From: Chloroflexota bacterium
GTDB taxonomy: Bacteria > Chloroflexota > Dehalococcoidia > E44-bin15
Length of the DNA stretch: 64,000 nt
NCBI GenBank assembly: GCA_030604825.1
Contig: JAUVVB010000003.1
Location: 4,224-68,223 of the forward strand
Reading direction: 5' to 3'
Shown here: piece by piece, positions 35,615 through 62,544 of the stretch
Position numbering within the stretch: the stretch's first letter is position 1
How the letters are laid out: every line of letters starts with the position of its first letter
Program-made: the position numbers and the translations under genes
The notes under the pieces: generated by a model
What the model was told of the DNA's origin: nothing
Seen by the model: the letters and a program-made list of their open reading frames with translations, nothing else
The model's database searches: none

Positions 35615-36859
35615 GTGGTGAAAAGAAGGGTGGTAATTAGCGGCATGGGATTGATAACGCCGCTAGGCATGGGGCTGGAAACCAATTGGCAGGCGCTGTG
35701 CCAGGGGAGATCGGGGATAGGGAAGGTCACCAGATTTGATGCCAGCTCCTTCCGCAGCCAGATTGCCGGTGAGGTGAAGGACTTTGATGCCGCCGATTTC
35801 ATGGATGTGAGGCTGGCGCGAAGGATCGACCCCTTTATCCAGTTTGCCCTGGCAGCAGCCTTGATGGCGGTGGAGGACTCCCAGCTTAAGATCAGCCCCT
35901 CCAACGCGGAGCGGGTTGGCGTCATCGTGGGAACGGGCCTGGGGGGGCTAGCAACCATGGAGAGAAACGCTCAGCTCCTTCTTGCTGGGGAGCAGCACCG
36001 GATTTCCCCCTTCTTCCTTCCTGGCTTCATCGCCAACATGGCTCCAGGGCAGATCGCCATCACTTTGGGCGCCAAGGGACCCAATAGCTGTCCGGTGACC
36101 GCCTGTGCTGCCGGGACCCATGGTGTAGGGGATGCCTTCAAGGTGATTCAGCATGGGGAGGCCGATGTCATGATCGCGGGGGGGACGGATGCCCCTGTCA
36201 CCCCATTGGTCTTCGCCGGGCTGGATGCCATGAGGGCCACCTCCACCAGAAGCGACCAGCCGGAGCGGGCTAGTCGTCCCTTCGATAAGGACCGCGATGG
36301 CTTTGTCGTCTCCGAGGGCGCAGGCATCCTCATCCTCGAGGAGTTGAATCATGCCTTGGCCCGAGGGGCAAAGACCTATGCTGAAGTGGTGGGCTACGGC
36401 TTCAACAACGACGCCTATCACATGACCGCTCCATCACCCGATGGGGAGGGGGCCGCTCGCTGCATGAGGATAGCCCTCAACGATGCCCAGCTCTCCCCCC
36501 AAGAGGTGGATTACATCAATGCCCATGGCACCTCAACCCCCCTAAACGACCTCTCGGAAACCCTTGCCGTAAAGGAAGTCTTCGGGGAGCATAGCAAGAA
36601 GCTTTGCCTCAGCTCCAATAAATCCATGGTGGGACATCTCTGTGGCGCTGCGGGGGCGGTGGAGGCCATCTTATCTGCTCTCACCATCAACAGGGGGATC
36701 ATCCCGCCTACCATCAACTATGAGACCCCCGACCCCCAGTGTGACCTCGATTATGTGGCCAACCAGGCTCGGCAGGCCAAGGTGAGGATTGCCCTCTCCA
36801 ACTCCTTCGGCTTTGCCGGCCACAACGGTACCGTAGTCCTCAGGGAGTTCGAGGAGTAG
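35615..36859 (+). CDS. fabF: 3-oxoacyl-ACP synthase II
   Basis: VTACAAG, PFDKDRDGFV, INAHGT, KSMVGH, SNSFGFAG. Confidence 0.93.
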   Translation: MVKRRVVISGMGLITPLGMGLETNWQALCQGRSGIGKVTRFDASSFRSQIAGEVKDFDAADFMDVRLARRIDPFIQFALAAALMAVEDSQLKISPSNAERVGVIVGTGLGGLATMERNAQLLLAGEQHRISPFFLPGFIANMAPGQIAITLGAKGPNSCPVTACAAGTHGVGDAFKVIQHGEADVMIAGGTDAPVTPLVFAGLDAMRATSTRSDQPERASRPFDKDRDGFVVSEGAGILILEELNHALARGAKTYAEVVGYGFNNDAYHMTAPSPDGEGAARCMRIALNDAQLSPQEVDYINAHGTSTPLNDLSETLAVKEVFGEHSKKLCLSSNKSMVGHLCGAAGAVEAILSALTINRGIIPPTINYETPDPQCDLDYVANQARQAKVRIALSNSFGFAGHNGTVVLREFEE

Positions 36860-36919
36860 ACCGCGGCACATAGCAAAATAAGGGGTGGATTGGGCTAGGC
36901 CGGCGTGAAGTATTGTGCA

Positions 36920-36965
36920 TGGTGGGCCGCAAGGGAATCGAACCCCTGACACGCGGATTAAAAGT
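36920..36965 (-). repeat. attR-like displaced 3' half of tRNA-Lys, including CCA
   Basis: Reads ACTTTTAATCCGCGTGTCAGGGGTTCGATTCCCTTGCGGCCCACCA; 38/43 identical to 39400-39442. Confidence 0.92.
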
Positions 36966-37083
36966 GCGTCCGCGCTCATCCCGCCCTATGCCGCCAGATA
37001 CGATTTGGTGCTGTCCCGTCCACCGCCACCGCCCATTTCGTATCTGCTGGTGATGCCCTGTGCTGCCCCGTGCTAACCAGTAT

Positions 37084-37102
37084 GTTTGCAAAATGTTTGC
37101 AA
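37084..37102. repeat. 19-bp arm-type repeat, copy 1
   Basis: GTTTGCAAAATGTTTGCAA, identical to 39362-39380. Confidence 0.9.
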
Positions 37103-37261
37103 CTTTTGGGGGTGAATGACGGGGATGGAAGGCTGGTTAATCACAGGGTGGGGGACTTAGGGAGGATAACCCTGAATTGCTTGTTGAGTGTTTGGGTTAT
37201 GCAAGCGCAAGAGGCAAGGTGATTGTTGATCGAAGGTCAAGTGAAGGAATGTTCCTCTACA

Positions 37262-37927
37262 TCACGACGCCAAACGATCTTCAAGCAACAATAAGTCCGT
37301 GCTATCCAATACTTTATATTCACTGGGATCTAGTCCAGCATTTGTTAGGCGCAGATAGAATGCGTCTCGGTGTATATATGTAATGAAAAAGCCTTCAGCT
37401 TTTCCTCCCGATAGTGTTTCAATTTGACTCAAGTCATCCTTCTGTCTTCTTATGGAATCCCAGTCATCTAATGAACACTTGCTTTGTAGACAATGCCCTC
37501 TCTCTTGACTACAACCAGCAGCATCAATTGAGCCCGATGTCCATACACCAATTCTTACCTGAACTTCTATGTCGGCTCTGGGATATATCTTGCGGCAAAT
37601 GAAATATGAGAAAACTTCTCCGACCGCGCCCCGCAAATGATCAATTTCACTGGAGTCTCCTGCGTAGATTGCATCCAGCTCATTCAAGATCTCAAGTGCC
37701 CTAACATGTGCACTGTGCTGGTTCAAGAACAATTTGGCTTGAGGATGTTGGCGAAACTTTGTGAAACCCTTCCGGCAAAAGAGAGTCCCCGGTATGGTCA
37801 GTAGCTGAAAATCCGGGACACGATAACTACTACCCTCTTCGTCTTTCAGCAGATTGCATAATCTTTCTACCCGCCTCTGATAAGCCTCTCGAGGATTGGG
37901 GCGAATCGGAACTAGGTCGAAAACCAT
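37262..37927 (-). CDS. Putative PD-(D/E)xK-superfamily nuclease (QxK variant)
   Basis: Motif spacing E104 (RGAVGEVF), D135 (SIDAAG), Q148-S-K150, Q162; GGGGAGG RBS. Confidence 0.6.
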   Translation of the reverse strand: MVFDLVPIRPNPREAYQRRVERLCNLLKDEEGSSYRVPDFQLLTIPGTLFCRKGFTKFRQHPQAKLFLNQHSAHVRALEILNELDAIYAGDSSEIDHLRGAVGEVFSYFICRKIYPRADIEVQVRIGVWTSGSIDAAGCSQERGHCLQSKCSLDDWDSIRRQKDDLSQIETLSGGKAEGFFITYIHRDAFYLRLTNAGLDPSEYKVLDSTDLLLLEDRLAS

Positions 37928-37947
37928 CCGTCTTAGCCCTCCCCGTC

Positions 37948-38367
37948 TTACCTTTCCTCTTCGCCCGCGACTTCTAGCCTACCGGGAGTTATGAGAGGGG
38001 CTGCAAAACTCTTGCCCGTCAAAGTACTAAATAGCTCACTACTAAAAGGGAGGATGGTATTTATAACATGAGTTTGGAAGGCATCGTTCTTAAAAATGTC
38101 CCTCGGCATAGGATCTTGAAACGCGAACCGCACCGCATGTGTTACTCGAAACGAGATTCCCTCGGACTTTATTTCCTGCCTAACTTTCAACTTGAAGCTG
38201 GTCTTCCTCTTTGCGCTGAAGGAAAAGGTTATGGAGCCTTCCAAGGGGATTCTCGATTCACTATCCCTTGCAAGCTCAGGTGCTGTAGCCCGATAGTACA
38301 AACTCAACAGCCGGATTCCGGCAATCCTTATGTGAGGGATTTCGCTCGGTGTTTCACGGCTGCTCAT
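37948..38367 (-). CDS. SecB-like chaperone
   Basis: 139 aa; alternating beta-strand pattern followed by NTILPFSSELFSTLTGKSFAAPLITP, matching the SecB C-terminal N..L.P(Y/F)..E....LT......PL..P motif. Confidence 0.7.
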   Translation of the reverse strand: MSSRETPSEIPHIRIAGIRLLSLYYRATAPELARDSESRIPLEGSITFSFSAKRKTSFKLKVRQEIKSEGISFRVTHAVRFAFQDPMPRDIFKNDAFQTHVINTILPFSSELFSTLTGKSFAAPLITPGRLEVAGEEER

Positions 38368-50338: not shown

Positions 50339-50815
50339 ATGGCTGCATTAAGCGACAAAACGGGGACGACAACGATTGACAAGATCTCGCCAGCGCTGAT
50401 GATCAAAAGGGAGGACCTGGATGATCTCTACACTGAGTGGCTCCGCGTGCCTGAGTGGATTAGAGCCCATGCCTCCATCACACGGCCTGTCCATCGCTAT
50501 GAAGGGGTGCTGACCCTCGAGGATCATTGCCTGGTTTTCCAGGGTCGGGATATAAAAGAGCGAAACGGCTTCAAGGAGGTGATACCCCTCGACAGTATCA
50601 CCAAGATTTCCTTGGGCTTCAATTCCTCCTCTCGCCTTGTAAAGCTGCAGCCCATCATCATCCATTACCAGACCGACGATGGTGTTCAGATAGCCTACCT
50701 GTATAGTGACTTCAATCGTGAAACTGGCATAGCCTACGGTAACCAAGATTGGTATGAGATATTAAAAGGGTATGTAGACAGCCGTGGAGCCGTCCATGCC
50801 CCGTCAATGAGATAG
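50339..50815 (+). CDS. Hypothetical protein (possible PH-like fold)
   Basis: GGGAG RBS; beta-strand pattern G.LTL....LVF, IPLDSI, terminal helix. Confidence 0.6.
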   Translation: MAALSDKTGTTTIDKISPALMIKREDLDDLYTEWLRVPEWIRAHASITRPVHRYEGVLTLEDHCLVFQGRDIKERNGFKEVIPLDSITKISLGFNSSSRLVKLQPIIIHYQTDDGVQIAYLYSDFNRETGIAYGNQDWYEILKGYVDSRGAVHAPSMR

Positions 50816-50973: not shown

Positions 50974-51660
50974 ATGTTAAAGGGATTCTTGATCGCTATA
51001 GGTGTGATTGTCGTTTTGGTGTTCATCGTTGGTGGAGTGGGTTACTATTTGGTTACCCGACCTCCAGAGATAGCAAAAGAGATGCGGCCGGTGGAGGTGA
51101 GCACCGAGGACGCCCAAAGTTTTGACCAGAAACTTGAAGCCTTTAGGGCAGAGGTGGAGGCGGCTGCGGCCGGGGAAGAGGTAAAGTTGATAATCACGGA
51201 GGAAGAGCTTACCTCCAAGGTTAGCGCTAGTATAGAGAAGCTGGTGGAGGATGCTGATCTCCCTTTGGGGGTGAGCGACATTCAGATCAACTTCAGCATG
51301 GGGAGTGCGTATCTGCTGATTACCGCCACGGTTGATTATGAAGGCGCTGCGCCACCGGTTCAGGCGGGGGCGGAAGTGGAGATAGACATCATAGAGGCTG
51401 ATGGTGGTGACAGATTGCTTCAATACACGGTCAACACGCTTAGTCTCGGTGCCCTGCCCGACTGGGCGCAGCGGGCGATCAGGGATATTTTGCTTCCAGA
51501 AGGGATGTCAGGGGCTGTAGCCTTCAGCGAGCTTCCGCAGGAGCTCTGGGGGCTAGATCTGGAAGATTTACCCATCGTCCTGAACGAGGTTTACACCCTG
51601 GAGACGGAAGAGAGAAATCAGCTAGTGTTCTCAGGGATAGCGGTTTCAGAGACGAATTGA
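50974..51660 (+). CDS. Membrane-anchored acidic hypothetical protein
   Basis: N-terminal TM helix; acidic ectodomain. Confidence 0.65.
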   Translation: MLKGFLIAIGVIVVLVFIVGGVGYYLVTRPPEIAKEMRPVEVSTEDAQSFDQKLEAFRAEVEAAAAGEEVKLIITEEELTSKVSASIEKLVEDADLPLGVSDIQINFSMGSAYLLITATVDYEGAAPPVQAGAEVEIDIIEADGGDRLLQYTVNTLSLGALPDWAQRAIRDILLPEGMSGAVAFSELPQELWGLDLEDLPIVLNEVYTLETEERNQLVFSGIAVSETN

Positions 51661-51886
51661 TGGATTTTTGCCCTCTAGAACAGCGCAGCCGCTCTGCTCA
51701 CCCCAAGGGTAACAGTCATGCCACCTGCCCTTTCACCGTTTCTTCCCTACAGAACTTCAGGCTCGCTGCCTGACGCCCGGCAAGGGTTCTGCCATATGCG
51801 CTCCTCCAGGTTTTCCTTGACAGTGAAAAGGGGCGGTGATATAGTTTATCCCAGGAAAATGACCCTGGTTTCCACATGGAGGGAGG

Positions 51887-53629
51887 ATGTTCGAGAAGGA
51901 AAGGATAGAGGAGATTGAGAGGAGAAGGAAGGAGTGGGAGGAGGGGGTGCTTAAGCGCACCCTGGAGAAGTTTGGGATGAAGGTGAGTCCCAACCGGGTC
52001 TACACCCCCGCCGATGTAAAGGATTTCGATTTCCTGGAGAAGGTGGGATTCCCCGGCGAATACCCCTTCACCACCTCGGAATATCCTTCCAATTTGCCTG
52101 CCCTCAGGATCAGGGGTGGGGTGAGTGCCGTGCTGGTGCGGGCGGCGAGGTATTCCGGCTATGGTGCCCCGGAGGATACCAGGGACTACTATAACCACAT
52201 GCGGGAAGCCCTTGGCCGGCGGGGTGGTCCCAATATCGCCTTCGACCTTCCCACCCAGTGTGGCTACGATTCCGATGACCTGGTGGCCCGGGGCGAGGTG
52301 GGGAAGGTGGGGGTGACGGTGGACACGCTGAGGGATTTTGAGGTGATATATGAGGCCTTCGTCGGGGATAACGACCTGGACAAGATAGCCTCCAACTGGA
52401 CGATAAATGCCCCCTGCAACATCATATTGGCGATGTATCTCGCGCTGGCGGAGAAGAGGGGGATACCGATAGATAGGCTGAGGGGGACGCCTCAGAACGA
52501 CATCCTAAAGGAATTTGTGGCCCGGGGGACATATATCTTTCCTGCCCGGCCATCGATGAGGATGATCAGGGATACCATCACCTACTGCACCGAGCACATG
52601 CCGCTGATGAACAGCATAAGCATCTGTGGCTATCATATGAGGGAGGCAGGGGCTATCCCCATCCAGATGGTGGCCTTCACCCTCTGTAATGCCATGGCCT
52701 ATGTTCAGCTGGGGGTGGATGCTGGGCTTGACGTTGACACCTTCATGCGCCGCTTCACCTTCCTCGTCTGGAGCACGGGCATGGATTTCTTCAAGGAGAT
52801 CGCCCGGGCGCGGGCGGCGAGGAGGATATGGGCCAAGATCATGAGGGAGAGGTTTGGCGCTGAGGATCCCAGGAGCTGGATGCTGCGGGGTGCTGGTGGG
52901 GTGGGTGTTCCCACTCACACCTTAACCCTGCAGCGACCGCTCAATAACGTGACGCGAAATGTCATCATTGGCATCGGCAACGCCCTTTCTGGGGGTGTCC
53001 CCACCGGTGGCGTTCCCTACGATGAGCCCCTGGGGCTGGGGCACAGCCTGGAGGCAGAACAGCTTTCCATCGATGCGGGGAGGATATTGCAGTTTGAGGC
53101 CAAGCTGGGGGATGTAATTGACCCCCTGGCCGGCTCCTACTATGTGGAGCACTTGACCGATCGGGCTGAGGAGGAGATCTGGGACATCATCCAAAGGATC
53201 GATGCCATGGGTGGCGCTGTAGCCGCCATCGAGAGCGGCTACATGCAGCGGGAGATCGCCAGGGGTGCCTACGAATATCAGCGGCAGGTGGAGATGGGGG
53301 AGAGGGTGATCGTTGGCGTAAACCGTTTCACCGGTGAGCAGGAGCTGGAGGTGCTCACCCACCGACTGGTGGAACACCCCTATGATCCCAAGAAGAGGGC
53401 GGAGGCAGAGGAGAGGCAGCTTAAGAATCTGGCCCAGGTGAAGGGGGCGCGGGATAATGGGCAGGTTCAGGCGACCCTGAAGCGGCTAAAGGAAGAGGCC
53501 GGGGACGAAAAGGCAAATCTCATCCCCCCCATTCTAGAGGCGGTGAAGGCCTATGCCTCCGTCGGCGAGATGTGTAATGTGTTGAGGGAGGTCTTTGGGG
53601 AATACCAGGCCTATAACGTGACCGCTTAG
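51887..53629 (+). CDS. AdoB12-dependent acyl-CoA mutase, large (catalytic) subunit, divergent
   Basis: FPGEYPF, AFDLPTQ.GYDSD, QNDILKEF, GYHMREAG, DPLAGSYYVE, VGVNRF. Confidence 0.92.
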   Translation: MFEKERIEEIERRRKEWEEGVLKRTLEKFGMKVSPNRVYTPADVKDFDFLEKVGFPGEYPFTTSEYPSNLPALRIRGGVSAVLVRAARYSGYGAPEDTRDYYNHMREALGRRGGPNIAFDLPTQCGYDSDDLVARGEVGKVGVTVDTLRDFEVIYEAFVGDNDLDKIASNWTINAPCNIILAMYLALAEKRGIPIDRLRGTPQNDILKEFVARGTYIFPARPSMRMIRDTITYCTEHMPLMNSISICGYHMREAGAIPIQMVAFTLCNAMAYVQLGVDAGLDVDTFMRRFTFLVWSTGMDFFKEIARARAARRIWAKIMRERFGAEDPRSWMLRGAGGVGVPTHTLTLQRPLNNVTRNVIIGIGNALSGGVPTGGVPYDEPLGLGHSLEAEQLSIDAGRILQFEAKLGDVIDPLAGSYYVEHLTDRAEEEIWDIIQRIDAMGGAVAAIESGYMQREIARGAYEYQRQVEMGERVIVGVNRFTGEQELEVLTHRLVEHPYDPKKRAEAEERQLKNLAQVKGARDNGQVQATLKRLKEEAGDEKANLIPPILEAVKAYASVGEMCNVLREVFGEYQAYNVTA

Positions 53630-53716
53630 GTCGCTGGGGACAGGGGGCTACCTCGATTGTGGGGAGATCTGGGCATCTGCCCCTCTTTGTTTGCCCAATA
53701 AAAAGGAGGAGCTCTG

Positions 53717-54124
53717 ATGACCGAGGAGAAAAGGATCAGGATGTTGATGGCAAAGCCGGGCCTTGATGGCCACGACCGCGGGGCTAGGGTGTTGACCCTG
53801 GGGTTGAGGGATGAGGGGATGGAGGTGATCTACACCGGGCTGAGGCAAAGCCCGGACAAGATAGCCCAGGCGGCGATCCAGGAAGATGTGGATGTGGTGG
53901 GTATGAGCTGCCTTTCTGGGGCCCATAACTACCTCTTCCCCGCGGTGTTGGAGAAGTTGAGGGAATCGGGGGCGGAGGACGTGCTGGTAATTGGCGGAGG
54001 AATTATCCCTAAGGAGGACATCCCCTTCCTCCAGGAGAAGGGGGTCAGCGCCGTCTTCGGCCCGGGGACGCCGATCAAGGAGATCGCGGACTACATTAGG
54101 GAAAACGTGAAGCGGAAGGCGTAG
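53717..54124 (+). CDS. Acyl-CoA mutase cobalamin-binding small subunit
   Basis: [21 protein letters not shown]. Confidence 0.95.
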
Positions 54125-54148
54125 GCGGATTTGGAGGTTTCACCGATA

Positions 54149-55123
54149 ATGGAACTGGTTGAGAAGATGCTTTCCGGCAGCGACCTGTCCCTGGCTCGCC
54201 TGATTACCCTGGTGGAGAGGGAGGCTGCCGAGGTTCCTCGGATAATGAGCCTGATCTATCCTCACCTCGGTAACGCCTATTTGGTGGGCGTTACCGGCCC
54301 CCCCGGAGGGGGAAAGAGCACCCTGGTGGACAGATTGACCGCGGTGATGAGGGCTAAGGGCTTCTCGGTGGGCATCATCGCCGCTGACCCCACCAGTCCC
54401 TTCTCCGGAGGCGCTGTGCTGGGCGACCGGATCAGGATGCAGCAGCACTATCTGGATAAAGGGGTGTTTATCCGCAGCATGGCCACCAGGGGCAGCGCCG
54501 GAGGGCTCCCCCGGGCAGCTAGGGGGGTGATCAAGCTCCTGGACGCTTATGGAAAGGATTTCGTCGTGGTGGAAACGGTGGGCGTGGGGCAGACGGAGCT
54601 GGACATCATGGAGGCTACCGACACCACGGTGGTTGTCCTTGTTCCCGAGGCTGGGGATACCATCCAGACGATGAAGGCGGGGCTGCTGGAGATCGCCGAT
54701 ATATTTGTGGTGAACAAGGCCGACCGGGAGGGGGCGGATTACCTGGCTGTTGAATTGGAGCAGATGTTGCGCATGAGCCCCAAGGACTCGGGATGGCAGC
54801 CCCCCATCCTCACCACCCAGGCAATCCATGACATCGGCATCCAGGAGCTTTATCAGGAGATCGAGAGGCATCGCGACGTGCTTCAGGAAACGGGGCAGCT
54901 CTCCCTCAAGCGACAGGAGCAAAGAAAACGGGAATTCATCCAAAACATCGAACAGGGGATCAGGGCAACCATCCTCAAACTGGCGGAGAAGGATGGCCAG
55001 CTCGTGTCCTTCCTGGAAAGGGTGGAGAAGGGGGAGCTTGACCCCTATTCCGCTTCCATGGAAATCCTCAGCAACAGAACCCTGCTTCAGACCTGGCTTT
55101 CCGAACTGGAGAAGGAAGGCTAG
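54149..55123 (+). CDS. meaB: MeaB-type G-protein metallochaperone
   Basis: GPPGGGKST, GGAVLGDRIRM, ETVGVGQ, NKAD. Confidence 0.93.
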   Translation: MELVEKMLSGSDLSLARLITLVEREAAEVPRIMSLIYPHLGNAYLVGVTGPPGGGKSTLVDRLTAVMRAKGFSVGIIAADPTSPFSGGAVLGDRIRMQQHYLDKGVFIRSMATRGSAGGLPRAARGVIKLLDAYGKDFVVVETVGVGQTELDIMEATDTTVVVLVPEAGDTIQTMKAGLLEIADIFVVNKADREGADYLAVELEQMLRMSPKDSGWQPPILTTQAIHDIGIQELYQEIERHRDVLQETGQLSLKRQEQRKREFIQNIEQGIRATILKLAEKDGQLVSFLERVEKGELDPYSASMEILSNRTLLQTWLSELEKEG

Positions 55124-55147
55124 CCTTAAACTTCGATAGGAGGAGAA

Positions 55148-56521
55148 ATGGACACCACCCGGAGAATCGCTGATTTTGTCGTTGGCACCGGCTATGAGGC
55201 AATTCCCCCGGAAGCGCTCAGATTTGCCAAGGGGGCAATCCTGGATTGCTTGGGTGTTGCCCTAGCTGGTTCCCTGGAGCCTTCGGCAAGGATGGTCACC
55301 GAATATGTCGGCGAAATGGGGGGGAGGGCTGAGGCTGGGGTCATCGCCTCGGGGTTCAACACCCCTGCTCCCCAGGCTGCCCTAGCCAATGGCACCATGG
55401 CCCATGCCCTGGACTATGACGATGTTGCCATGAGTTGGATTGGTCACCCCAGCGTGGTGCTCCTGCCCACGGCACTGGCCCTGGCGGAGAGGGGGAGGCT
55501 CTCGGGAAGGGATGTGCTGGAGGGCTATATCTTGGGCTTTGAGGTGGGGGCGAAGCTGGGGGCGGCGGTGGGTTTCCCCCATTATGATTGGGGCTGGCAT
55601 GCCACCGCTACCCTGGGCACCATGGCCGCTGCGGCCACCGCTGCCAAGATGCTGAGGCTCAATTCCCATCAGGCGGCGATGGCATTGGGAATCGCCGCTT
55701 CCCTGGCGGGGGGGACGAGGCAGAACTTTGGCACCATGACCAAGCCCTTTCATGCGGGAAGCGCGGCAAGGAATGGGACGGTGGCCGCCCTCCTGGCGGA
55801 GAAGGGTTTTACCGCCGATGAGGCCATCCTGGAGAGCCCCATGGGCTTCCTAAGGCTGTTCAGCGGCAGTGGCGAGCCGGAGCAAGCCAAGGCCAGCCAA
55901 GACCTGGGCGACCCCTTTGACATCCTCTCTCTGGGGGTAAGCATGAAGCCCTATCCCTGTTGCCGGCTGACCCACCGCTGCATCGACGCCATGCTGCACC
56001 TGATCAGGGAATACCGCCTCACCGCCGATGATGTGGAGGGGGTGAAATGTAGAACCGCCGAGACCGCCCCCCAAGTACTGATCCACCCCCGGCCCAGGAC
56101 GGCCCTGGAGGGGAAGTTCAGCATGCAGTACTGCATGGCCATCGCCCTTCTGGATGGGAAGGTTGGCCTGAGGCAGTTCACCGATGAGAGGGTGCTTGAC
56201 CCCAAAGCCCAAGAGCTGCTGAGGAGGGTGGAGTTTGTCCATCCCCAGGGGGAGAGCGGTGAGGCACTGAGAATTCCCGAGGCCGTCATCGTCAAGCTCA
56301 GGGATGGCAGGGAGCTTTCCCATGAGGTGGCGGTTCCCAAGGGGGACCCCCAGAATCCGATGACCGAGGAGGAGCTGGCGGCCAAATACAGGGACTGCGC
56401 CAGCCTGGTTCTCTCCGCAGAGGATACCGAGAGGTCGCTGGATATGGTGTCCCACCTTGAGGGGCTGGAGGATATCGCCCCGCTGGTGCATCTAGTGTGT
56501 TTGACGGGCAAATCTGCCTAA
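55148..56521 (+). CDS. MmgE/PrpD family protein
   Basis: NGTMAHALDYDD, GHPS, KPFHAG, KPYPCCRLTH, KFSMQY. Confidence 0.92.
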   Translation: MDTTRRIADFVVGTGYEAIPPEALRFAKGAILDCLGVALAGSLEPSARMVTEYVGEMGGRAEAGVIASGFNTPAPQAALANGTMAHALDYDDVAMSWIGHPSVVLLPTALALAERGRLSGRDVLEGYILGFEVGAKLGAAVGFPHYDWGWHATATLGTMAAAATAAKMLRLNSHQAAMALGIAASLAGGTRQNFGTMTKPFHAGSAARNGTVAALLAEKGFTADEAILESPMGFLRLFSGSGEPEQAKASQDLGDPFDILSLGVSMKPYPCCRLTHRCIDAMLHLIREYRLTADDVEGVKCRTAETAPQVLIHPRPRTALEGKFSMQYCMAIALLDGKVGLRQFTDERVLDPKAQELLRRVEFVHPQGESGEALRIPEAVIVKLRDGRELSHEVAVPKGDPQNPMTEEELAAKYRDCASLVLSAEDTERSLDMVSHLEGLEDIAPLVHLVCLTGKSA

Positions 56522-56541
56522 GATACCAACAGGAGGATGAT

Positions 56542-57759
56542 ATGAAGGGGCCACTGTCGGGGATCAGGGTTCTGGATGTGTCACGGGCCATCGCTGGCCC
56601 CTATGGCTCCATGATCCTTGCCGACCTGGGGGCTGAGGTGATCAAGATCGAGCCTCCAAGATGGGGGGAAAGGGCGCGCCATATCCCCGGGCCTAACCAC
56701 AAGGGAGAGAGCTACTACTTCCTTGCCTTCAATCGAAATAAGAAGAGCGTAACCCTCAACCTGGCCACCGAGCTGGGGAGGGAGGCCTTCTATGACCTGG
56801 TGAGGATATCGGACGTGGTGTGGGACAACTTCCGCCCCAGGGTTATGGAGCGATTGGGTGCCGACTACGACACCCTGAAGGAGATCAATCCCGGCATCAT
56901 CTGCTGCTCGGTAACGGGCTTCGGCTCCTCCGGCCCCTATCGGGATCGCCCCTCCTTCGACCTGGTGGCGCAGGCGATAAGTGGGGTGATGAGCATCACC
57001 GGAGAGCCCGGGGGCCCACCCCTTCGCTCCGGCCCCCCCGTCGCTGACCTGGTGGGAGGCATGTTCGGCGTTCATGGCGTCCTCGCCGCCCTCTACCAGC
57101 GAACCTTCACTGGCAAGGGGCAAAGGGTGGAGACATCCCTGCTGGATGGTCAGGTCTCCAACCTCACCTACCAGATGTCCTACTATTTGTGCGGTGGGGA
57201 GGTCCCCGGCCCCATGGGTTCAGGCCATCTTTCCCTGGTCCCCTACGGGGCCTATAAGGCCAAGGAAGGCTATCTGGTTATGGGTGTGGGCTGGCCTCGG
57301 GTGGCCAGGGTGCTGGGCATCGAGGAGATCATCGACGACCACAGGTTCGAGAGCGGCGAGTCCAGGCTGGAACATAAGGAGGAGCTAGATTCCCTCGTTC
57401 AGCAGGCCTTCCTCAAGGAGAAGGCAGAGGATTGGCTCGCCGTGCTGGAGGTGGAGGATATCCCCTGCGGCCCGGTAAACGCCATCGACAAGGCCATTTC
57501 CGATCCCCAGATAATTCACAACAACATGATCGTGAGCGTAAAGCACCCCTTGGGGGGTGAGGTGAGGATGGTGGGAAATCCGATAAAGATGCCCCAGAGC
57601 ATCGAGGAGGAGTTCACCGCCCCGCCCACCCTGGGGCAGCATGACCACGAAATCCTGGTTGAGCTTCTTGGCTACTCCGAGGAGAGGATCGAGAGGTTGA
57701 GGGAGGAGGAGGAGAGGCGTGCCGAGAAACTGCTTGCCAGCCTGCAGAAGCGGGCCTGA
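56542..57759 (+). CDS. Class III CoA-transferase (CaiB/BaiF), paralog 1
   Basis: LSGIRVLD, AGPYG, NRNKKS, DNFRP, catalytic D in PVADLVGG. Confidence 0.93.
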   Translation: MKGPLSGIRVLDVSRAIAGPYGSMILADLGAEVIKIEPPRWGERARHIPGPNHKGESYYFLAFNRNKKSVTLNLATELGREAFYDLVRISDVVWDNFRPRVMERLGADYDTLKEINPGIICCSVTGFGSSGPYRDRPSFDLVAQAISGVMSITGEPGGPPLRSGPPVADLVGGMFGVHGVLAALYQRTFTGKGQRVETSLLDGQVSNLTYQMSYYLCGGEVPGPMGSGHLSLVPYGAYKAKEGYLVMGVGWPRVARVLGIEEIIDDHRFESGESRLEHKEELDSLVQQAFLKEKAEDWLAVLEVEDIPCGPVNAIDKAISDPQIIHNNMIVSVKHPLGGEVRMVGNPIKMPQSIEEEFTAPPTLGQHDHEILVELLGYSEERIERLREEEERRAEKLLASLQKRA

Positions 57760-57774
57760 AAGGAGGATGACATA

Positions 57775-58986
57775 ATGAGGCCACTGGAAGGGGTAAGGGT
57801 TCTGGCTCTGGAGCGGGCCATCGCTGGCCCCTATGGCTCCATGGTGCTTGCCGATCTGGGAGCGGAGGTGATCAAGGTCGAGCCTCCTCAGACCGGCGAC
57901 CTGAGCAGATTATTCGTCGGTCCAAATCATAAGGGGGAGAGCTTTTACTACATGGCATTCAATAGGGGCAAGAAAAGCCTGGCGCTGGACATCAACACAA
58001 AGATGGGCAAGGAACTCTTCTACGACCTGGTAAAGATATCGGATGTGGTCTGGGATAATTTCTCCGCCGGGACCATGGAGAGGATAGGGGCTGATTTCGA
58101 TACCCTGAGCCGGATCAACCTGGGGATCATCTGCTGCTCCATCAGCGGCTACGGGCAGACTGGTCCCTATCGGGATCGAATCTCCTTTGATGTGGTTGCT
58201 GAGGCCATAAGCGGGGCGATGAGCATCACCGGTGAGCCGGGAAGGCCACCGGTTAGGTATGGCGCCCCCATCGCCGATGAGATGGGAGGGCTGTTTGGCG
58301 CCATTGGCGTGCTGGCCGCCTTGGCGCAGCGGGAACGCATCGGGAAGGGAACCAGGATAGACATCTCCCTCCTCGATGGTCAGATATCCTCCCTGGCCTA
58401 TCACCTTTTGTACTATTTCTGCTCCGGGATCGCCTGCGGGCCTCAACGTTCAGGCCATCTCTCCCTCATCCCCTATGGGGCCTATGAGACCAAGAAAGGC
58501 TATCTTGCTATTGGCCCTTGCTGGCCCAGGATATGTCGTGTCTTGGGCGTTGAGGAGATCATCGATGCCCCCCGGTTCGAGAGCGGCGAGTCCAGGATCG
58601 AGCATCGGGAGGAGCTGGATTCCATCCTCCAGCAGGCCTTCATGAAGGAGAAGGCGGAGGACTGGCTTGAGGTCCTCTATGCGGAGCGCATTGGAGCCGG
58701 CCCGGTGAATACCCTGGATAAGGCGGCTGCCGACCCCCAGGTGCTGGCGAGGAACATGGTGGTGGAGATGGAGCATCCCCTGGGGGGGAAGATAAGGCAT
58801 GTGGGAAACCCGGTGAAGATGCCAGAAATCGGGGAGGAATTCTCCCCTCCGCCTACCCTGGGGCAGGACAGCGAGGAGATCCTGGTGGGGCTTATGGGCT
58901 GCTCCGCGGAGAAGATAAAGCAGTTGAGGCAGGAGGAGGAGCAGCGCGCCGAGGAATTGCTTGCCAGCCTGCGCCGGGCGCAGTGA
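57775..58986 (+). CDS. Class III CoA-transferase (CaiB/BaiF), paralog 2
   Basis: LEGVRVL, AGPYG, NRGKKS, catalytic D in PIADEMGG. Confidence 0.93.
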   Translation: MRPLEGVRVLALERAIAGPYGSMVLADLGAEVIKVEPPQTGDLSRLFVGPNHKGESFYYMAFNRGKKSLALDINTKMGKELFYDLVKISDVVWDNFSAGTMERIGADFDTLSRINLGIICCSISGYGQTGPYRDRISFDVVAEAISGAMSITGEPGRPPVRYGAPIADEMGGLFGAIGVLAALAQRERIGKGTRIDISLLDGQISSLAYHLLYYFCSGIACGPQRSGHLSLIPYGAYETKKGYLAIGPCWPRICRVLGVEEIIDAPRFESGESRIEHREELDSILQQAFMKEKAEDWLEVLYAERIGAGPVNTLDKAAADPQVLARNMVVEMEHPLGGKIRHVGNPVKMPEIGEEFSPPPTLGQDSEEILVGLMGCSAEKIKQLRQEEEQRAEELLASLRRAQ

Positions 58987-58995
58987 AGTGGGGGA

Positions 58996-60444
58996 ATGGG
59001 GGTACCGGTGGCACAGAAGGTATTGCTGGTCAATACCAACCAGATAAAGCCCCCAGTGGTGCCGCTGGCCCTGGATTATCTCGCCTCTGCCCTTCGCCAG
59101 AAGGAATTTGAGGTCGACCTTCTCGACCTCTGTTTCTGCCAGGACTTCGCCCCCGAGATCCGTCGCTACTTGGCCCAGAACAGCGTCTCCGCCATCGCCA
59201 TCACCCTGCGAAACACCGACGATACTCACTTTGCCGGCCAGGATTTCTTCATCCCCCAGCTCAAGGAGATAACCGACTGCCTCAGGGCAAACACCTCCGC
59301 CCCCCTCATCCTGGGCGGGGCTGGTTTCTCCATCATGCCCCAGGCCATCTTGGAGTACTGCGGGCTGGGTCTGGGGATCTGGGGGGAGGGGGAAGCCTCG
59401 CTCCCTTTGCTGCTGAGGAAGCTCAATGCCGGTGAGGACTACCGCGATGTCCCCGGACTGGTCTATCGCGGCGAAAAGGGCTTCCATCGAAATCCCCCCG
59501 AGTACCTCAACCTGAAGAATATGCCCGCTCCAGAGCGGGTCACCGTGGACAACCGGCGCTACTTTGGGGAGGGGGGCATGGGCAGCATAGAGACGAAGCG
59601 AGGTTGCTCCAAGGGTTGCATCTACTGTGCCGACCCCCTGGGAAAGGGGAGAAAAGTTCGCTGCCGCTCCCCCGAGAGCGTGGCGGATGAGATAGAGGCC
59701 CTGCTGGGGATGGGGATTGACCATCTCCACTTCGGCGATAGCGAGTTCAACCTTCCCCCAAGCCATGCTGAGCAGGTTTGCCTTGAGCTCATCAAAAGAG
59801 GGCTGGGCTCAAGGCTGAGGTGGTATGCCTACTTAAGCCCGGTTCCCTTCAGCCGGGAGCTTGCCCTTCTATTCCAAAGGGCGGGATGTGCCGGCATAAA
59901 CTTTGGTGCAGATAGCGGCAATGACGTTATGCTGCGCACCCTGGGGCGGGATTTCACCGTAGAGGACCTGGAGCACACTGCTGGCATCTGCCACCGGGAG
60001 GGCATCATCTTTATGTATGACCTCCTTCTGGGAGGGCCGGGTGAAACCAGGGAATCGCTCAAGCAGACCATCGAGACCATGAAAAGGCTCTCCCCATCGC
60101 GGGTAGGGGCTAGCATTGGGGTGAGGGTCTTCCCCGGAACCAAGATGGCGAAGTTGGTGAAGGGGGAAGGCCCCATAGCAGAAAGCCCCAACCTCCACGG
60201 CGTTAGGGACGAAAAATTCTTTGCCCCGGTCTTCTACCTGTCCTCGGCCCTGGGGGAGGATGCCCCGGGGTATCTTGCCAGCCTCATTTCAGGCGATGAG
60301 CGCTTTTTCAGTGCTTTTGCCGATGGCGGGGATCAGAACTACAACTATAACCAAAACCTCATCCTGGTGGAGGCTATCAGGGACGGCTATCGGGGCGCCT
60401 TCTGGGACATCCTGAGAAGGCTATCGGAGTCCAAAGCCCTTTGA
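58996..60444 (+). CDS. B12-binding radical SAM enzyme, TsrM-like methyltransferase clade
   Basis: NQIKPPVVPLALD, RNTD, GGAGFSIMP, TKRGCSKGCIYC, DSEFNL, GYRGAFW. Confidence 0.85.
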   Translation: MGVPVAQKVLLVNTNQIKPPVVPLALDYLASALRQKEFEVDLLDLCFCQDFAPEIRRYLAQNSVSAIAITLRNTDDTHFAGQDFFIPQLKEITDCLRANTSAPLILGGAGFSIMPQAILEYCGLGLGIWGEGEASLPLLLRKLNAGEDYRDVPGLVYRGEKGFHRNPPEYLNLKNMPAPERVTVDNRRYFGEGGMGSIETKRGCSKGCIYCADPLGKGRKVRCRSPESVADEIEALLGMGIDHLHFGDSEFNLPPSHAEQVCLELIKRGLGSRLRWYAYLSPVPFSRELALLFQRAGCAGINFGADSGNDVMLRTLGRDFTVEDLEHTAGICHREGIIFMYDLLLGGPGETRESLKQTIETMKRLSPSRVGASIGVRVFPGTKMAKLVKGEGPIAESPNLHGVRDEKFFAPVFYLSSALGEDAPGYLASLISGDERFFSAFADGGDQNYNYNQNLILVEAIRDGYRGAFWDILRRLSESKAL

Positions 60445-60469
60445 CAAAGCGGGGCACCCGATATAGAAT
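60441..60469 (+). promoter_or_regulatory. sigma70 promoter
   Basis: TTGACA-17 nt-TAGAAT. Confidence 0.7.
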
Positions 60470-60484: not shown

Positions 60485-61888
60485 TTGAAAAGCAAATACG
60501 ACATCATCATCGTGGGCGGCGGACCTGCAGGCATCTTCGCCGCCTTAGAAATGTCTCAGGCCTCGAATTTGAGCATCCTCCTTCTGGAGAAGGGGAAGGA
60601 TATCGATTCCCGAAGCTGTCCCTCCATCGGGCAGGGGATAAGCTGCCCCCCGTGCTCCCCCTGCGACCTGGTGAGCGGGGTTGGCGGCGCTGGCGCCTTC
60701 AGCGATGGCAAGCTCACCCTCTCCAGTGAGGTAGGGGGCAGGCTTAAGGATTACCAGGGGCTGGAGAGGACCGAGGAGCTGATCCGCTATGTCGATAGCG
60801 TCTTCCTCAAGTTTGGGGGGACGGACAGCGTCTATGGCACTGGAGAAAAAGTGGAGGAGTTGGTGCGCAGGGCCACCCTGGCTGATCTGCGCCTCATCCC
60901 CATGGCGATTCGCCATCTGGGAACGGAGCGCTCCCGCCTGGTGTTCAAGGGGATAGGGGACTTCCTCTCAACCAGGGTTGACCTAAAGGTGAGCACTGAA
61001 GCCCGCACCATCCTCGCCGAGAACGGGGTGGCTAAGGGGATTGAGACCACCGATGGGCAAAGGTTTGACTGCCGCTATCTGATCGTCGCCCCGGGAAGGG
61101 ACGGGGTGGACTGGCTCACCCGCGAGGCCCATCGCCTCAAGCTCACCCTTCAGATTAACCCCATCGATGTCGGCGTCAGGGTGGAGGTACCTGAAGCCGT
61201 CCTTGAGGAGTTGACCAGCGCCTTATATGAGTGCAAGCTGGAATATTACTCCAAGGCCTTTGACGACCGGATCAGGACCTTCTGCATGTGCCCCGCGGGG
61301 GAGGTGACCATGGAGTCCACCGGGGGCAGCGACCCGGTGACCACCGTCAATGGCCAGAGCTATGCCGAGCGCAAGACCGGCAACACGAATTTTGCCCTGC
61401 TGGTGAGCACCATCTTCACCGAGCCCTTCCGCGACCCCCTGGCCTACGGGCGATACCTCGCTCGCCTGGCCAACATCCTCAGCGGTGGGGTCATCATACA
61501 GCGCCTCGGCGACCTATTGGAGGGCAGGCGCTCCACCGAGGAGCGCATCCGGAGGGGGATTGTCCAGCCCACCCTCAAGAGCGCCACCCCGGGCGATCTC
61601 AGCTTCGTGCTCCCCTATCGCTACCTGGTGGGCATCATCGAGATGCTTGAAGCCATGGACAAGCTTGCCCCCGGCGTTGCCTCCCGCCATAGCCTGCTCT
61701 ATGGTGTGGAGGTCAAGTTCTATTCCTCGCGCCTCGCCCTCAGCCAAAACCTGGAGAGCGAGATAGAGAACATGTTTGCCGTTGGTGACGGCGCCGGGGT
61801 TACTCGGGGACTCATCCAGGCATCGGCCTCGGGCGTGGTGGCAGCCGGGGAAATCCTGAGGAGAGCGGGGGTATCCGCTGCTGGGTGA
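60485..61888 (+). CDS. NAD(P)/FAD-dependent oxidoreductase (COG2509-like)
   Basis: VGGGPAG, GGAGAFSDGKL, RTFCMCP, YGVEVKFYS, GDGAGVTRG. Confidence 0.88.
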   Translation: MKSKYDIIIVGGGPAGIFAALEMSQASNLSILLLEKGKDIDSRSCPSIGQGISCPPCSPCDLVSGVGGAGAFSDGKLTLSSEVGGRLKDYQGLERTEELIRYVDSVFLKFGGTDSVYGTGEKVEELVRRATLADLRLIPMAIRHLGTERSRLVFKGIGDFLSTRVDLKVSTEARTILAENGVAKGIETTDGQRFDCRYLIVAPGRDGVDWLTREAHRLKLTLQINPIDVGVRVEVPEAVLEELTSALYECKLEYYSKAFDDRIRTFCMCPAGEVTMESTGGSDPVTTVNGQSYAERKTGNTNFALLVSTIFTEPFRDPLAYGRYLARLANILSGGVIIQRLGDLLEGRRSTEERIRRGIVQPTLKSATPGDLSFVLPYRYLVGIIEMLEAMDKLAPGVASRHSLLYGVEVKFYSSRLALSQNLESEIENMFAVGDGAGVTRGLIQASASGVVAAGEILRRAGVSAAG

Positions 61889-62544
61889 TGTTCATTGGCA
61901 TCGACCTCAGTTCATCCCCCAAAAAGCCCACCGCCTGCGTTGGACTGGATGAAGGGCTGCGTCTTTTTTGGTTTGACCTTCTATTGAGCGATGCCGACAT
62001 CCTGGATGCCATTGTAAGCCACCGCCCTGGCATTGTGGCCATCGATTCCCCCATAGGCTTGCCTCAGGGGCTCTGCTGCCTCGAGGAGGGCTGCTCCTGC
62101 CAGCCGCTCACTCCGGCGAAGGGAAGGGCATGTGAAAGGGAGCTCTCCCACCGCGGCATCCCCAGCTATTACACCACCAAGAGGTCGATCATAAAAAATA
62201 TGGTCTATCGAGCCATCGTCTTAAAGCGTGAAATCGATGCCCTGGGGTGCCAGGTTATCGAGGTCTATCCCTATGCTACAAAGGTGAACCTTTTCGGCAA
62301 ACCCATCCCCTCCAAGTTGGAGCCCGCAGGCATTGCTTTCCTCCGGGAGCGCCTTTGTGGCCTCATGCCCCACAATGCTCCCCAGATATCGGGGTTCAAC
62401 CATGACCTTTGCGATGCCCTTCTCGCCGCCTTTACCGCTTTCCTCTACAGAAGAGGCGAGGTAGAAATTCTGGGTCACCCCGAGGAGGGTGCCATCTGCA
62501 TCCCCAAAACGCCTCTGCTTGACACATCGCCTCCAAGTGGCTAG
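61888..62544 (+). CDS. DUF429 family protein (RNase H-like predicted nuclease)
   Basis: FIGIDLS, VAIDSPIG, IEVYP, DLCDALLAA. Confidence 0.85.
   Translation: MFIGIDLSSSPKKPTACVGLDEGLRLFWFDLLLSDADILDAIVSHRPGIVAIDSPIGLPQGLCCLEEGCSCQPLTPAKGRACERELSHRGIPSYYTTKRSIIKNMVYRAIVLKREIDALGCQVIEVYPYATKVNLFGKPIPSKLEPAGIAFLRERLCGLMPHNAPQISGFNHDLCDALLAAFTAFLYRRGEVEILGHPEEGAICIPKTPLLDTSPPSG

Follow-up and report, generated by a model that had tools for sequence, protein, structure and literature searches.

The six-gene operon

We analysed a 64,000-nucleotide stretch of DNA (the window; contig JAUVVB010000003.1, here C28) from a Chloroflexota bacterium of the class Dehalococcoidia. It contains an operon for an adenosylcobalamin (AdoCbl, B12)-dependent acyl-CoA mutase, a MeaB chaperone, a MmgE/PrpD-family protein and two class III CoA-transferases. 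The genome (G000, 1.37 Mb) is 91% complete. Gene identities were assigned by Pfam and NCBIfam profile searches (Table 1). The initial annotation had placed six genes on one strand with short gaps; its open reading frame (ORF) coordinates are exact and the gaps are 87, 6, 24, −25 and 15 bp. The match of the large subunit to the AdoCbl acyl-CoA mutase family is full-length, with PF01642 spanning residues 36–571. In the small subunit the DxHxxG motif reads DGHDRG (residues 17–22). The chaperone exceeds the TIGR00750 cut-off of 240.75 bits and has the P-loop GPPGGGKS.

Table 1. Features of the mutase operon (positions within the window)
Feature	Position	Strand	Details
Promoter-like site, sigma-70 type, TTGACA-17-TATAGT, extended TG (predicted)	51817-51845	+	11/12 consensus matches; ~40 bp 5' of first ATG
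Acyl-CoA mutase large (substrate-binding) subunit, mutL	51887-53629	+	580 aa; PF01642, E 1e-140
Mutase small, B12-binding subunit, mutS	53717-54124	+	135 aa; PF02310, acid_CoA_mut_C, TIGR00640 174 bits
MeaB/ArgK G-protein chaperone of B12 mutases	54131-55123	+	330 aa; TIGR00750 344.7 bits
MmgE/PrpD-family protein, putative 2-substituted-succinate epimerase	55148-56521	+	457 aa; MmgE_PrpD_N and MmgE_PrpD_C
Class III CoA-transferase ctA (mutase-module clade, A type)	56497-57759	+	420 aa; PF02515, E 4.5e-125
Class III CoA-transferase ctB (mutase-module clade, B type)	57775-58986	+	403 aa; PF02515, E 1.8e-114

A mutase clade with a remodelled active site

The large subunit scores 419 bits against the methylmalonyl-CoA mutase equivalog NF006944, which has a cut-off of 876. 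The equivalents of Tyr89, Arg207 and Tyr243-His244 (P. shermanii numbering) are retained, and the motifs ARYSGYG, VARGTYIF and CGYHMREAG align at these positions. We take Tyr89 and Arg207 to be the substrate-carboxylate residues and Tyr243-His244 to be catalytic. Because the Tyr and Arg are retained, the substrate would bear a free carboxylate. In every clade member compared, GAGGVGVPTHT and PTGGVPYDEPLGLGHS stand in place of the H(T/C)QT and SLHTN motifs. Canonical HTQT and SLHTN are present in the sequences aligned from Bacillota, from Thermus and from contig C5 of the same genome. A clade-specific insertion of 10–20 residues stands just before the Tyr89 equivalent in all clade members compared. 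This rebuilt core implies that the clade would act on a substrate other than methylmalonyl-CoA.

The specificity residues of 2-hydroxyisobutyryl-CoA and isobutyryl-CoA mutases were not found in the window protein. HcmA (4r3u), its best solved match overall (381 bits), has Ile, Gln and Asp where the window protein has Tyr, Arg and Ala. The marks of 2-hydroxyisobutyryl-CoA mutases are Ile at Tyr89, Gln at Arg207 and Asp117, and those of isobutyryl-CoA mutases Phe at Tyr89 and Gln at Arg207.

Just three proteins among 1.84 billion 50%-identity representatives are at least 52% identical to the window mutase, the next standing at 45%. One of the three (P0242) represents a cluster of 99 metagenome proteins that includes one from a metagenome-assembled genome named 'Deltaproteobacteria bacterium'; another (P0243) is from Conexibacter. 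Scans of a genome and of a metagenome collection with the generic motif QNDILKEY gave almost only canonical split mutases among the matches listed. The close representatives and the Dehalococcoidia mutases form one clade with support 100, which excludes the canonical split mutases of Bacillota, Atribacterota, Treponema and archaea as well as the C5 copies of the window genome. In the IQ-TREE phylogeny this clade of 29 rows (support 100) holds the window mutase together with three mutases linked to alkylsuccinate synthase (ass) genes. The ass-linked and window mutases have identical core-motif replacements and the same insertion.

The PrpD-like protein has the residues of a two-base epimerase

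The best solved relative of the PrpD-like protein is iminodisuccinate (IDS) epimerase (2hp0/2hp3, 242 bits); PrpD proper reaches ~30 bits (E ~1e-6). Identity as 2-methylcitrate dehydratase PrpD was rejected on scores of 54 bits against NF042438 (cut-off 950), 51 against NF006943 (575) and 38 against TIGR02330 (458). In a gap-free alignment all seven catalytic and binding residues are kept: H86, D89, H100, Y146, H151, K199 and K267, corresponding to H85, D88, H99, Y145, H150, K198 and K266 of 2HP0. The Tyr is the second base. The same HDHYHKK set is found in mutase-linked and ass-linked PrpD homologs. Gonner et al. [quoted passage not shown] The residue set supports proton exchange at C2 of a succinate skeleton as the probable chemistry of the window protein. 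Of the two reactions initially offered for it, epimerisation or dehydration, dehydration is the less likely. The genetic context is not that of Msi, as no acyl-CoA dehydrogenase, hydratase or lyase was found in the operon. Ten of the 16 members of the clade that holds the window protein (support 98) are mutase-linked. A protein-atlas search returned 'MmgE/PrpD family' as the sole label.

The transferases belong to a dedicated clade near dicarboxylate transferases

Both transferases are nearest to dicarboxylate transferases, namely SUGCT, YfdE and the mesaconate and glutarate models. The closest solved relative of ctA is SUGCT (9br7, 295 bits); BbsF reaches 162 bits. A catalytic-type Asp is present in ctA (Asp184, in VADLVGG) and in ctB (in IADEMGG) and is conserved in 24/27 homologs. 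We take it to be the equivalent of Asp169 of Frc, the catalytic Asp of class III transferases. Together with ctA, ctB and the copies on contigs C21 and C2, every mutase-linked transferase of the relatives except one falls in a single clade (support 96); the remaining 24 transferases of the genome lie outside it. The C2 gene is an 84% copy of ctA. It follows three genes for tandem solute-binding proteins and precedes MaoC-like, short-chain dehydrogenase (SDR), amidohydrolase and acyl-CoA dehydrogenase genes.

ctA shares 65% identity with ctB, whose ortholog is the sole transferase of genomes G276 (85% identity) and G194; the ctA type occurs in G209, C21 and C2. A heteromer like BbsEF or SmtAB was considered and rejected on the identity of the two proteins and on the retention of the B type alone in G276 and G194. 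The twin class III genes of the initial annotation are confirmed as genes. Given their degree of identity, their common clade and the two syntenic relatives with a single transferase, they are not an obligatory pair of the BbsEF kind. The twin is an old duplication within a dedicated family. IaaL transfers CoA both between and within molecules (PMC8360864), and by analogy a dual activity of this kind is one possible reason for keeping two transferases. The genome also contains eight tandem transferase pairs with one member each in two sister clades (8 and 9 rows), which look like a family of heteromeric alpha/beta transferases.

The mutase-PrpD-transferase linkage is conserved

Conservation was examined in 301 genomes of the class, evenly drawn, with the divergent mutase defined by E ≤ 1e-170 and at least 52% identity. 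It is present in 23/301 genomes at about 40 loci; 40 mutase loci were retrieved and their ORFs clustered. PrpD-like genes are present in 126/301 genomes, a tally that includes the unpublished genome G244 and is the only result here to draw on it. The initial proposal depended on conserved linkage among mutase homologs, and a PrpD gene indeed lies within ~10 kb of the clade mutase at 18 of about 41 loci, most of the 18 also having a class III transferase. Gene orders include mutL-mutS-meaB-prpD-ct, mutL-prpD-ct-carboxyltransferase-hydratase, prpD-mutL-ct-mutS-meaB and prpD-acyl-CoA dehydrogenase-mutL-mutS. PrpD linkage reaches the deepest branch of the mutase tree, over which its distribution requires at least seven state changes. 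The linkage is therefore old and repeatedly rearranged, and is no local accident.

The synteny of the window (dinB through the B12-radical-SAM, FAD-protein and DUF429 genes) is common to three other genera of the family (G276, G209 and G194). The neighbours encoded in relatives include a carboxyltransferase and an enoyl-CoA hydratase at locus L023. At L029 and L031 they include a MaoC-like protein, an SDR, an acyl-CoA dehydrogenase and, together with an OB-fold partner, a BbsAB-like thiolase. A radical-SAM protein with a PDZ domain (530–710 aa) is encoded in or near L010, L029, L031, L039, L040 and L049, and adjoins mutS in four of them.

Relatives of the mutase are linked to alkylsuccinate synthase genes

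The ass clusters of Desulfoglaeba and Smithella family B contain genes for mutase large and small subunits, an ArgK/LAO ATPase and a MmgE/PrpD protein, and are homologous to locus I of strain AK-01 (PMC7180275, PMC13685792). The word 'uncharacterised' in the initial annotation thus has to be qualified, since the trio had already been noted as ass-locus accessory genes.

A similar arrangement was found in the family of the window organism. On contig C58 of genome G128, prpD-mutL is preceded, at a distance of 3.3 kb, by the gene for an 837-aa glycyl-radical enzyme. The best solved match of this enzyme is the 1-methylalkylsuccinate synthase MasD (819 bits), followed by BssA (534 bits) and others at ~300 bits. 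AssA-like genes, defined by at least 43% identity to the G128 enzyme, are present in 6/301 genomes and the clade mutase in 6/6 of these. This co-occurrence is an indication only, because the genomes are kin and not independent.

Sampling was extended to 401 genomes from the phylum of the 'Deltaproteobacteria' genome (here Desulfobacterota-like). AssA-like genes are present in 15/401. Three loci encode a sigma-54 activator, MutS, MutL, MeaB, PrpD, a radical-SAM activase, small ORFs, an AssA-like enzyme, a MoxR-type ATPase and a VWA protein; hydratases, a carboxyltransferase and an AMP-forming ligase (the ligase in L251) are encoded nearby. Their mutases lie inside the clade, as sister (support 96) to the Dehalococcoidia sub-branch that holds the G128 locus. 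The window mutase is on a different sub-branch and is 49–52% identical to them.

Several further features of the AssA-like genes were noted. The G128 C58 enzyme is 75–79% identical to enzymes of G546 and G651 from the Desulfobacterota-like sample, which suggests a recent cross-phylum transfer or a binning error. Many glycyl-radical enzyme genes are present in G128, G036, G223 and G289, all of the window's family; G128 has 18 matches, several of them AssA/MasD-like and some in tandem. The window's genus has none, unlike its sister genera. Features noted at L047 (3066-4594), L216, L217 and L023 (7762-8665) are a PNPOx-like pair (~135 aa) and one or two ORFs of 78–94 aa behind the AssA-like gene; the short ORFs have a weak resemblance to the small subunit of 4-hydroxyphenylacetate decarboxylase. 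In G100 the PNPOx-like pair borders the mutase-prpD-transferase-carboxyltransferase cluster as well.

Paralogs in the genome

Eight mutase large subunits are encoded in the genome. Four of them (window, C6, C14 and C21) score 470–490 bits against the Pfam model and share 69–72% mutual identity. The remaining four are more canonical, at 573–765 bits compared with 470 for the window copy. The genome further encodes ~30 class III transferases, one MeaB, one PduO-type adenosyltransferase and two PrpD-like proteins, and both PrpD-like genes adjoin a divergent mutase. The second such cluster, on C21, has the order mutS-hydratase-mutL-prpD-transferase. Downstream of the C14 mutase gene are genes for a carboxyltransferase, a biotin carrier, the beta subunit of a Na+ pump and a hydratase, and the Na+-translocating decarboxylase set there is complete. 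Behind the C6 copy lie etfBA. No glycyl-radical enzyme (PFL-like or AssA-like) was found in the 91%-complete genome.

Two of the paralogs have peculiarities. The C21 mutL (3148-4869, L011) has an in-frame TAG ~55 codons before its end, on a contig of only 7 kb; the gene may be a pseudogene or encode a shorter protein, or the stop may be a sequencing error. The C14 copy (36253-37980, L010) has His at the position of the carboxylate-binding Arg, and the same synteny is seen in G194 and G276.

Boundaries of the module

The functional unit is the six genes from 51887 to 58986, since the downstream B12-radical-SAM, FAD-protein and DUF429 genes were ruled out as parts of it. The B12-radical-SAM gene starts 9 bp 3' of ctB and may be co-transcribed with the operon. 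It is single-copy in 40/301 genomes, many of which lack the clade mutase, and sits on a different contig in G179. Its product (58996-60444) has the Trp C2-methyltransferase TsrM as best solved match (253 bits) and falls under every NCBIfam cut-off. The genes for the FAD-dependent protein (FAD-depend_C domain) and the DUF429 protein (60485-62544) overlap by 4 bp and have a promoter-like site of their own (60441-60469). The pair is retained at the same position in G194 and G179.

Upstream, between dinB and the operon, two ORFs without a Pfam match (50339-50815, 158 aa; 50974-51660, 228 aa) have a lower GC content of 0.51–0.53. The second has a hydrophobic segment at its start. Both are absent from the syntenic G194, in which dinB directly abuts the mutase gene, and they look like a strain-specific insert.

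A proposed pathway for 2-substituted succinates

We propose, with a probability of roughly 65%, that the operon encodes the entry steps of anaerobic 2-substituted-succinate catabolism: epimerisation, CoA transfer and carbon-skeleton rearrangement. The initial annotation had likewise envisaged activation, epimerisation and B12-dependent rearrangement of a substituted succinate, and this outline gains support from the linkage, from the clade shared with ass-locus mutases and from the epimerase-type residues of the PrpD-like protein. Every substrate named below, and the order of the steps, is part of the proposal.

A free 2-substituted succinate would be taken up, either an alkylsuccinate, such as a (1-methylalkyl)succinate released by alkane-activating neighbours, or a short one such as methylsuccinate. 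The acid would come from outside because no glycyl-radical enzyme was found in the genome. The PrpD-like protein, as a cofactor-free two-base (His/Tyr) epimerase, would interconvert the stereoisomers at C2. ctA and ctB would then move CoA from succinyl-CoA to the usable isomer, and possibly shift CoA between its two carboxyls. The AdoCbl mutase, loaded and guarded by MeaB, would convert the substituted succinyl-CoA to a substituted malonyl-CoA. Genes outside the operon would supply the enzymes for the subsequent decarboxylation and beta-oxidation; candidates for the decarboxylation are the carboxyltransferases on C14 and C17. In relatives an adjacent carboxyltransferase or acyl-CoA dehydrogenase would take the place of these distant candidates. 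Seep sediment has been reported to contain free succinate conjugates of propane and toluene, as well as Dehalococcoidia carrying several assA variants (PMC7673041). The data accommodate methylsuccinate, through chemistry like that of ethylmalonyl-CoA mutase (Ecm), just as well as they do longer alkylsuccinates.

Relation to known systems

The closest counterparts are the accessory genes of ass/mas loci in Desulfatibacillum alkenivorans AK-01, Desulfoglaeba alkanexedens ALDC and Smithella family B, which comprise the same trio of mutase ('mcmLS' or 'hcmAB'), ArgK/MeaB and MmgE/PrpD (PMC7180275, PMC13685792). The mutases share one clade and the same active-site remodelling, and the PrpD proteins share one catalytic signature. 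The window genome differs in being without AssA, activase or small subunits, although its relative G128 does have an AssA-like neighbour on C58. Class III transferases in the window replace the AMP-forming ligase of L251. The function of the ass-locus genes is postulated, and that proposed for the window genes is likewise putative.

The PrpD-like protein is of the same family and subfamily as IDS epimerase (PDB 2HP0) and Msi (PA0881 and its C. necator homolog), with the two-base residues kept; Msi was compared by its description (PMC12290011). Msi works alongside a CoA-transferase and requires the free acid, and the window protein is likewise encoded beside transferases. Msi, however, always adjoins methylsuccinyl-CoA dehydrogenase in a Pseudomonadota itaconate cluster, whereas the partner in the window is a B12 mutase.

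The Iaa route of Aromatoleum aromaticum (the class III phenylsuccinyl-CoA transferase IaaL, the B12 mutase IaaGH and the decarboxylating benzylmalonyl-CoA dehydrogenase IaaF) offers an analogy, with the same logic of a transferase followed by a mutase that turns a succinyl-type into a malonyl-type ester (PMC8360864). Some relatives of the window locus have an acyl-CoA dehydrogenase beside the mutase, in keeping with this scheme. Iaa differs in its aryl succinate substrate, and no PrpD-family epimerase is listed for it. The conversion of methylsuccinyl-CoA to ethylmalonyl-CoA by Ecm would be the same chemistry as that proposed here for the shortest substrate. Ecm keeps the carboxylate-binding residues, is a fused single chain, forms its own subclade and serves the assimilatory ethylmalonyl-CoA pathway. 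Canonical split methylmalonyl-CoA mutase loci of Bacillota, Atribacterota and Treponema (L057-L059, L066 and L068) have the same subunits and chaperone, retain Tyr89, Arg207 and His244 and include a methylmalonyl-CoA decarboxylase. Their mutases are only 40–47% identical to the window protein, lie outside its clade and keep HTQT and LHTN, with no PrpD or class III transferase gene nearby.

Evidence against the proposal and alternative explanations

Several observations weigh against the proposed pathway. prpD-mutL adjoins just one of the ~20 AssA-like loci retrieved from the class. The ass-linked PrpD proteins of the Desulfobacterota are 36–38% identical to that of the window and form a long separate branch without a settled position. 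The HDHYHKK signature is widespread in the PrpD subfamily, and so it carries no information on the substrate side chain. No decarboxylase, dehydrogenase or hydratase is encoded in the operon, and the literature searched on ass loci reports no assay of a clade mutase or of an ass-linked PrpD. At the same chromosomal site G179 (C48, L053) has dinB-meaB-prpD-FAD protein-DUF429, with no mutase, transferase or radical-SAM gene; a search with the window mutase as query found no clade mutase elsewhere in that genome. The clade mutase of L040 and L042 lies with sucCD and with a gene of the acetyl-CoA hydrolase/transferase family that may encode a succinyl-CoA:acetate CoA-transferase. One or two mutase-family candidates were seen in these two genomes, and the clade member alone passes E ≤ 1e-170. 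Because of these sucCD-linked members and of the C14 paralog with its Na+-pumping, methylmalonyl-CoA-decarboxylase-like neighbour, part of the clade may be ordinary methylmalonyl-CoA mutase.

The same loci also speak for the main rival, in which the window operon would be an ordinary methylmalonyl-CoA mutase operon of a succinate/propionate pathway, with propionate or succinate CoA-transferases and a PrpD of a methylcitrate-type side route. The retained Tyr89, Arg207 and His244 equivalents fit it, as does the presence of the genome's sole MeaB in this operon. We nevertheless consider it unlikely. Four more canonical large subunits are available in the genome for that role, the window mutase falls far short of the methylmalonyl-CoA mutase equivalog, and it has a clade-specific insertion and lacks the H(T/C)QT and LHTN motifs that nearly all canonical mutases compared keep. 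Neither partner suits such a pathway: the PrpD-like protein is remote from 2-methylcitrate dehydratase in both profile scores and solved structures, and the transferases are nearest to SUGCT/mesaconate dicarboxylate enzymes in a clade dedicated to the mutase. An aryl-substituted succinate has also been weighed as the substrate. In such an Iaa or benzylsuccinate route, an IaaL/BbsEF-like transferase would act on phenyl- or benzylsuccinate ahead of an IaaGH-like mutase. Iaa does pair a class III transferase with a B12 mutase on an arylsuccinyl-CoA (PMC8360864), L029 and L031 combine Bbs-like genes for beta-oxidation with an acyl-CoA dehydrogenase gene placed between prpD and mutL, and BbsF is a detectable relative of ctA. 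The sole direct tie found is AssA/MasD-like and not BssA-like, and ctA is far nearer to SUGCT than to BbsF; an aryl substrate thus seems improbable.

The remaining alternatives concern the PrpD-like protein and the linkage itself. The protein is detectably related to cis-aconitate decarboxylases and the B. subtilis 'IRG1' (147–208 bits), and one enolate mechanism is common to the family (PMC12290011). It might accordingly be a tricarboxylate decarboxylase or dehydratase, like cis-aconitate decarboxylase, that supplies a dicarboxylate for, e.g., itaconate/mesaconate-type C5 chemistry. This is very unlikely given the second base Tyr of two-base epimerases and IDS epimerase as the best solved match, and no locus examined has an aconitase-type or citrate-linked gene near the module. 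Itaconyl-CoA inactivates B12 mutases, which counts against such a supply as well. Finally, the six genes could be neighbours by history alone, a general MeaB and mutase beside an unrelated PrpD and transferases. The flanks (rib operon, dinB, B12-radical-SAM, FAD protein and DUF429) are conserved backbone, meaB-prpD is retained there in G179 without a mutase, and the adjacent B12-radical-SAM gene is phyletically independent of the mutase. A purely historical proximity is scarcely credible all the same, as mutase, PrpD and the dedicated transferase are found together again in unrelated contexts and rearranged orders, across several families and in a second phylum.

Significance

Anaerobic alkane degradation continues after fumarate addition with thioesterification, epimerisation, carbon-skeleton rearrangement and decarboxylation. 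In 2021 the genes for these steps were called 'unclear' (PMC8163825), and no assay was found in the literature searched. The mutase-MeaB-PrpD trio as ass-locus accessory genes and Dehalococcoidia with assA are already on record. The literature searched did not contain a mutase clade delimited by active-site changes, the dedicated transferase clade, the epimerase reading of the PrpD-like protein given here or a module without Ass. The locus and its relatives provide a compact, clonable set: a delimited B12 mutase clade with a rebuilt pocket, a PrpD with an epimerase signature and a dedicated transferase clade.

More tentatively, and at less than even odds, the clade could be the long-postulated alkylsuccinyl-CoA mutase of anaerobic alkane degradation, with its PrpD partner as the missing free-acid epimerase, and Dehalococcoidia without Ass could live partly by scavenging released alkylsuccinates. 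If so, the module would form a cross-feeding link in hydrocarbon-seep sediments, and a cell with several paralogous mutases would have them adapted to different side chains. That genomes without an activating enzyme possess the module suggests that substituted succinates are themselves a traded substrate. These compounds serve as field markers of anaerobic hydrocarbon decay, and such trade would alter the reading of their concentrations. It would also give the abundant Dehalococcoidia of sediments a concrete niche.

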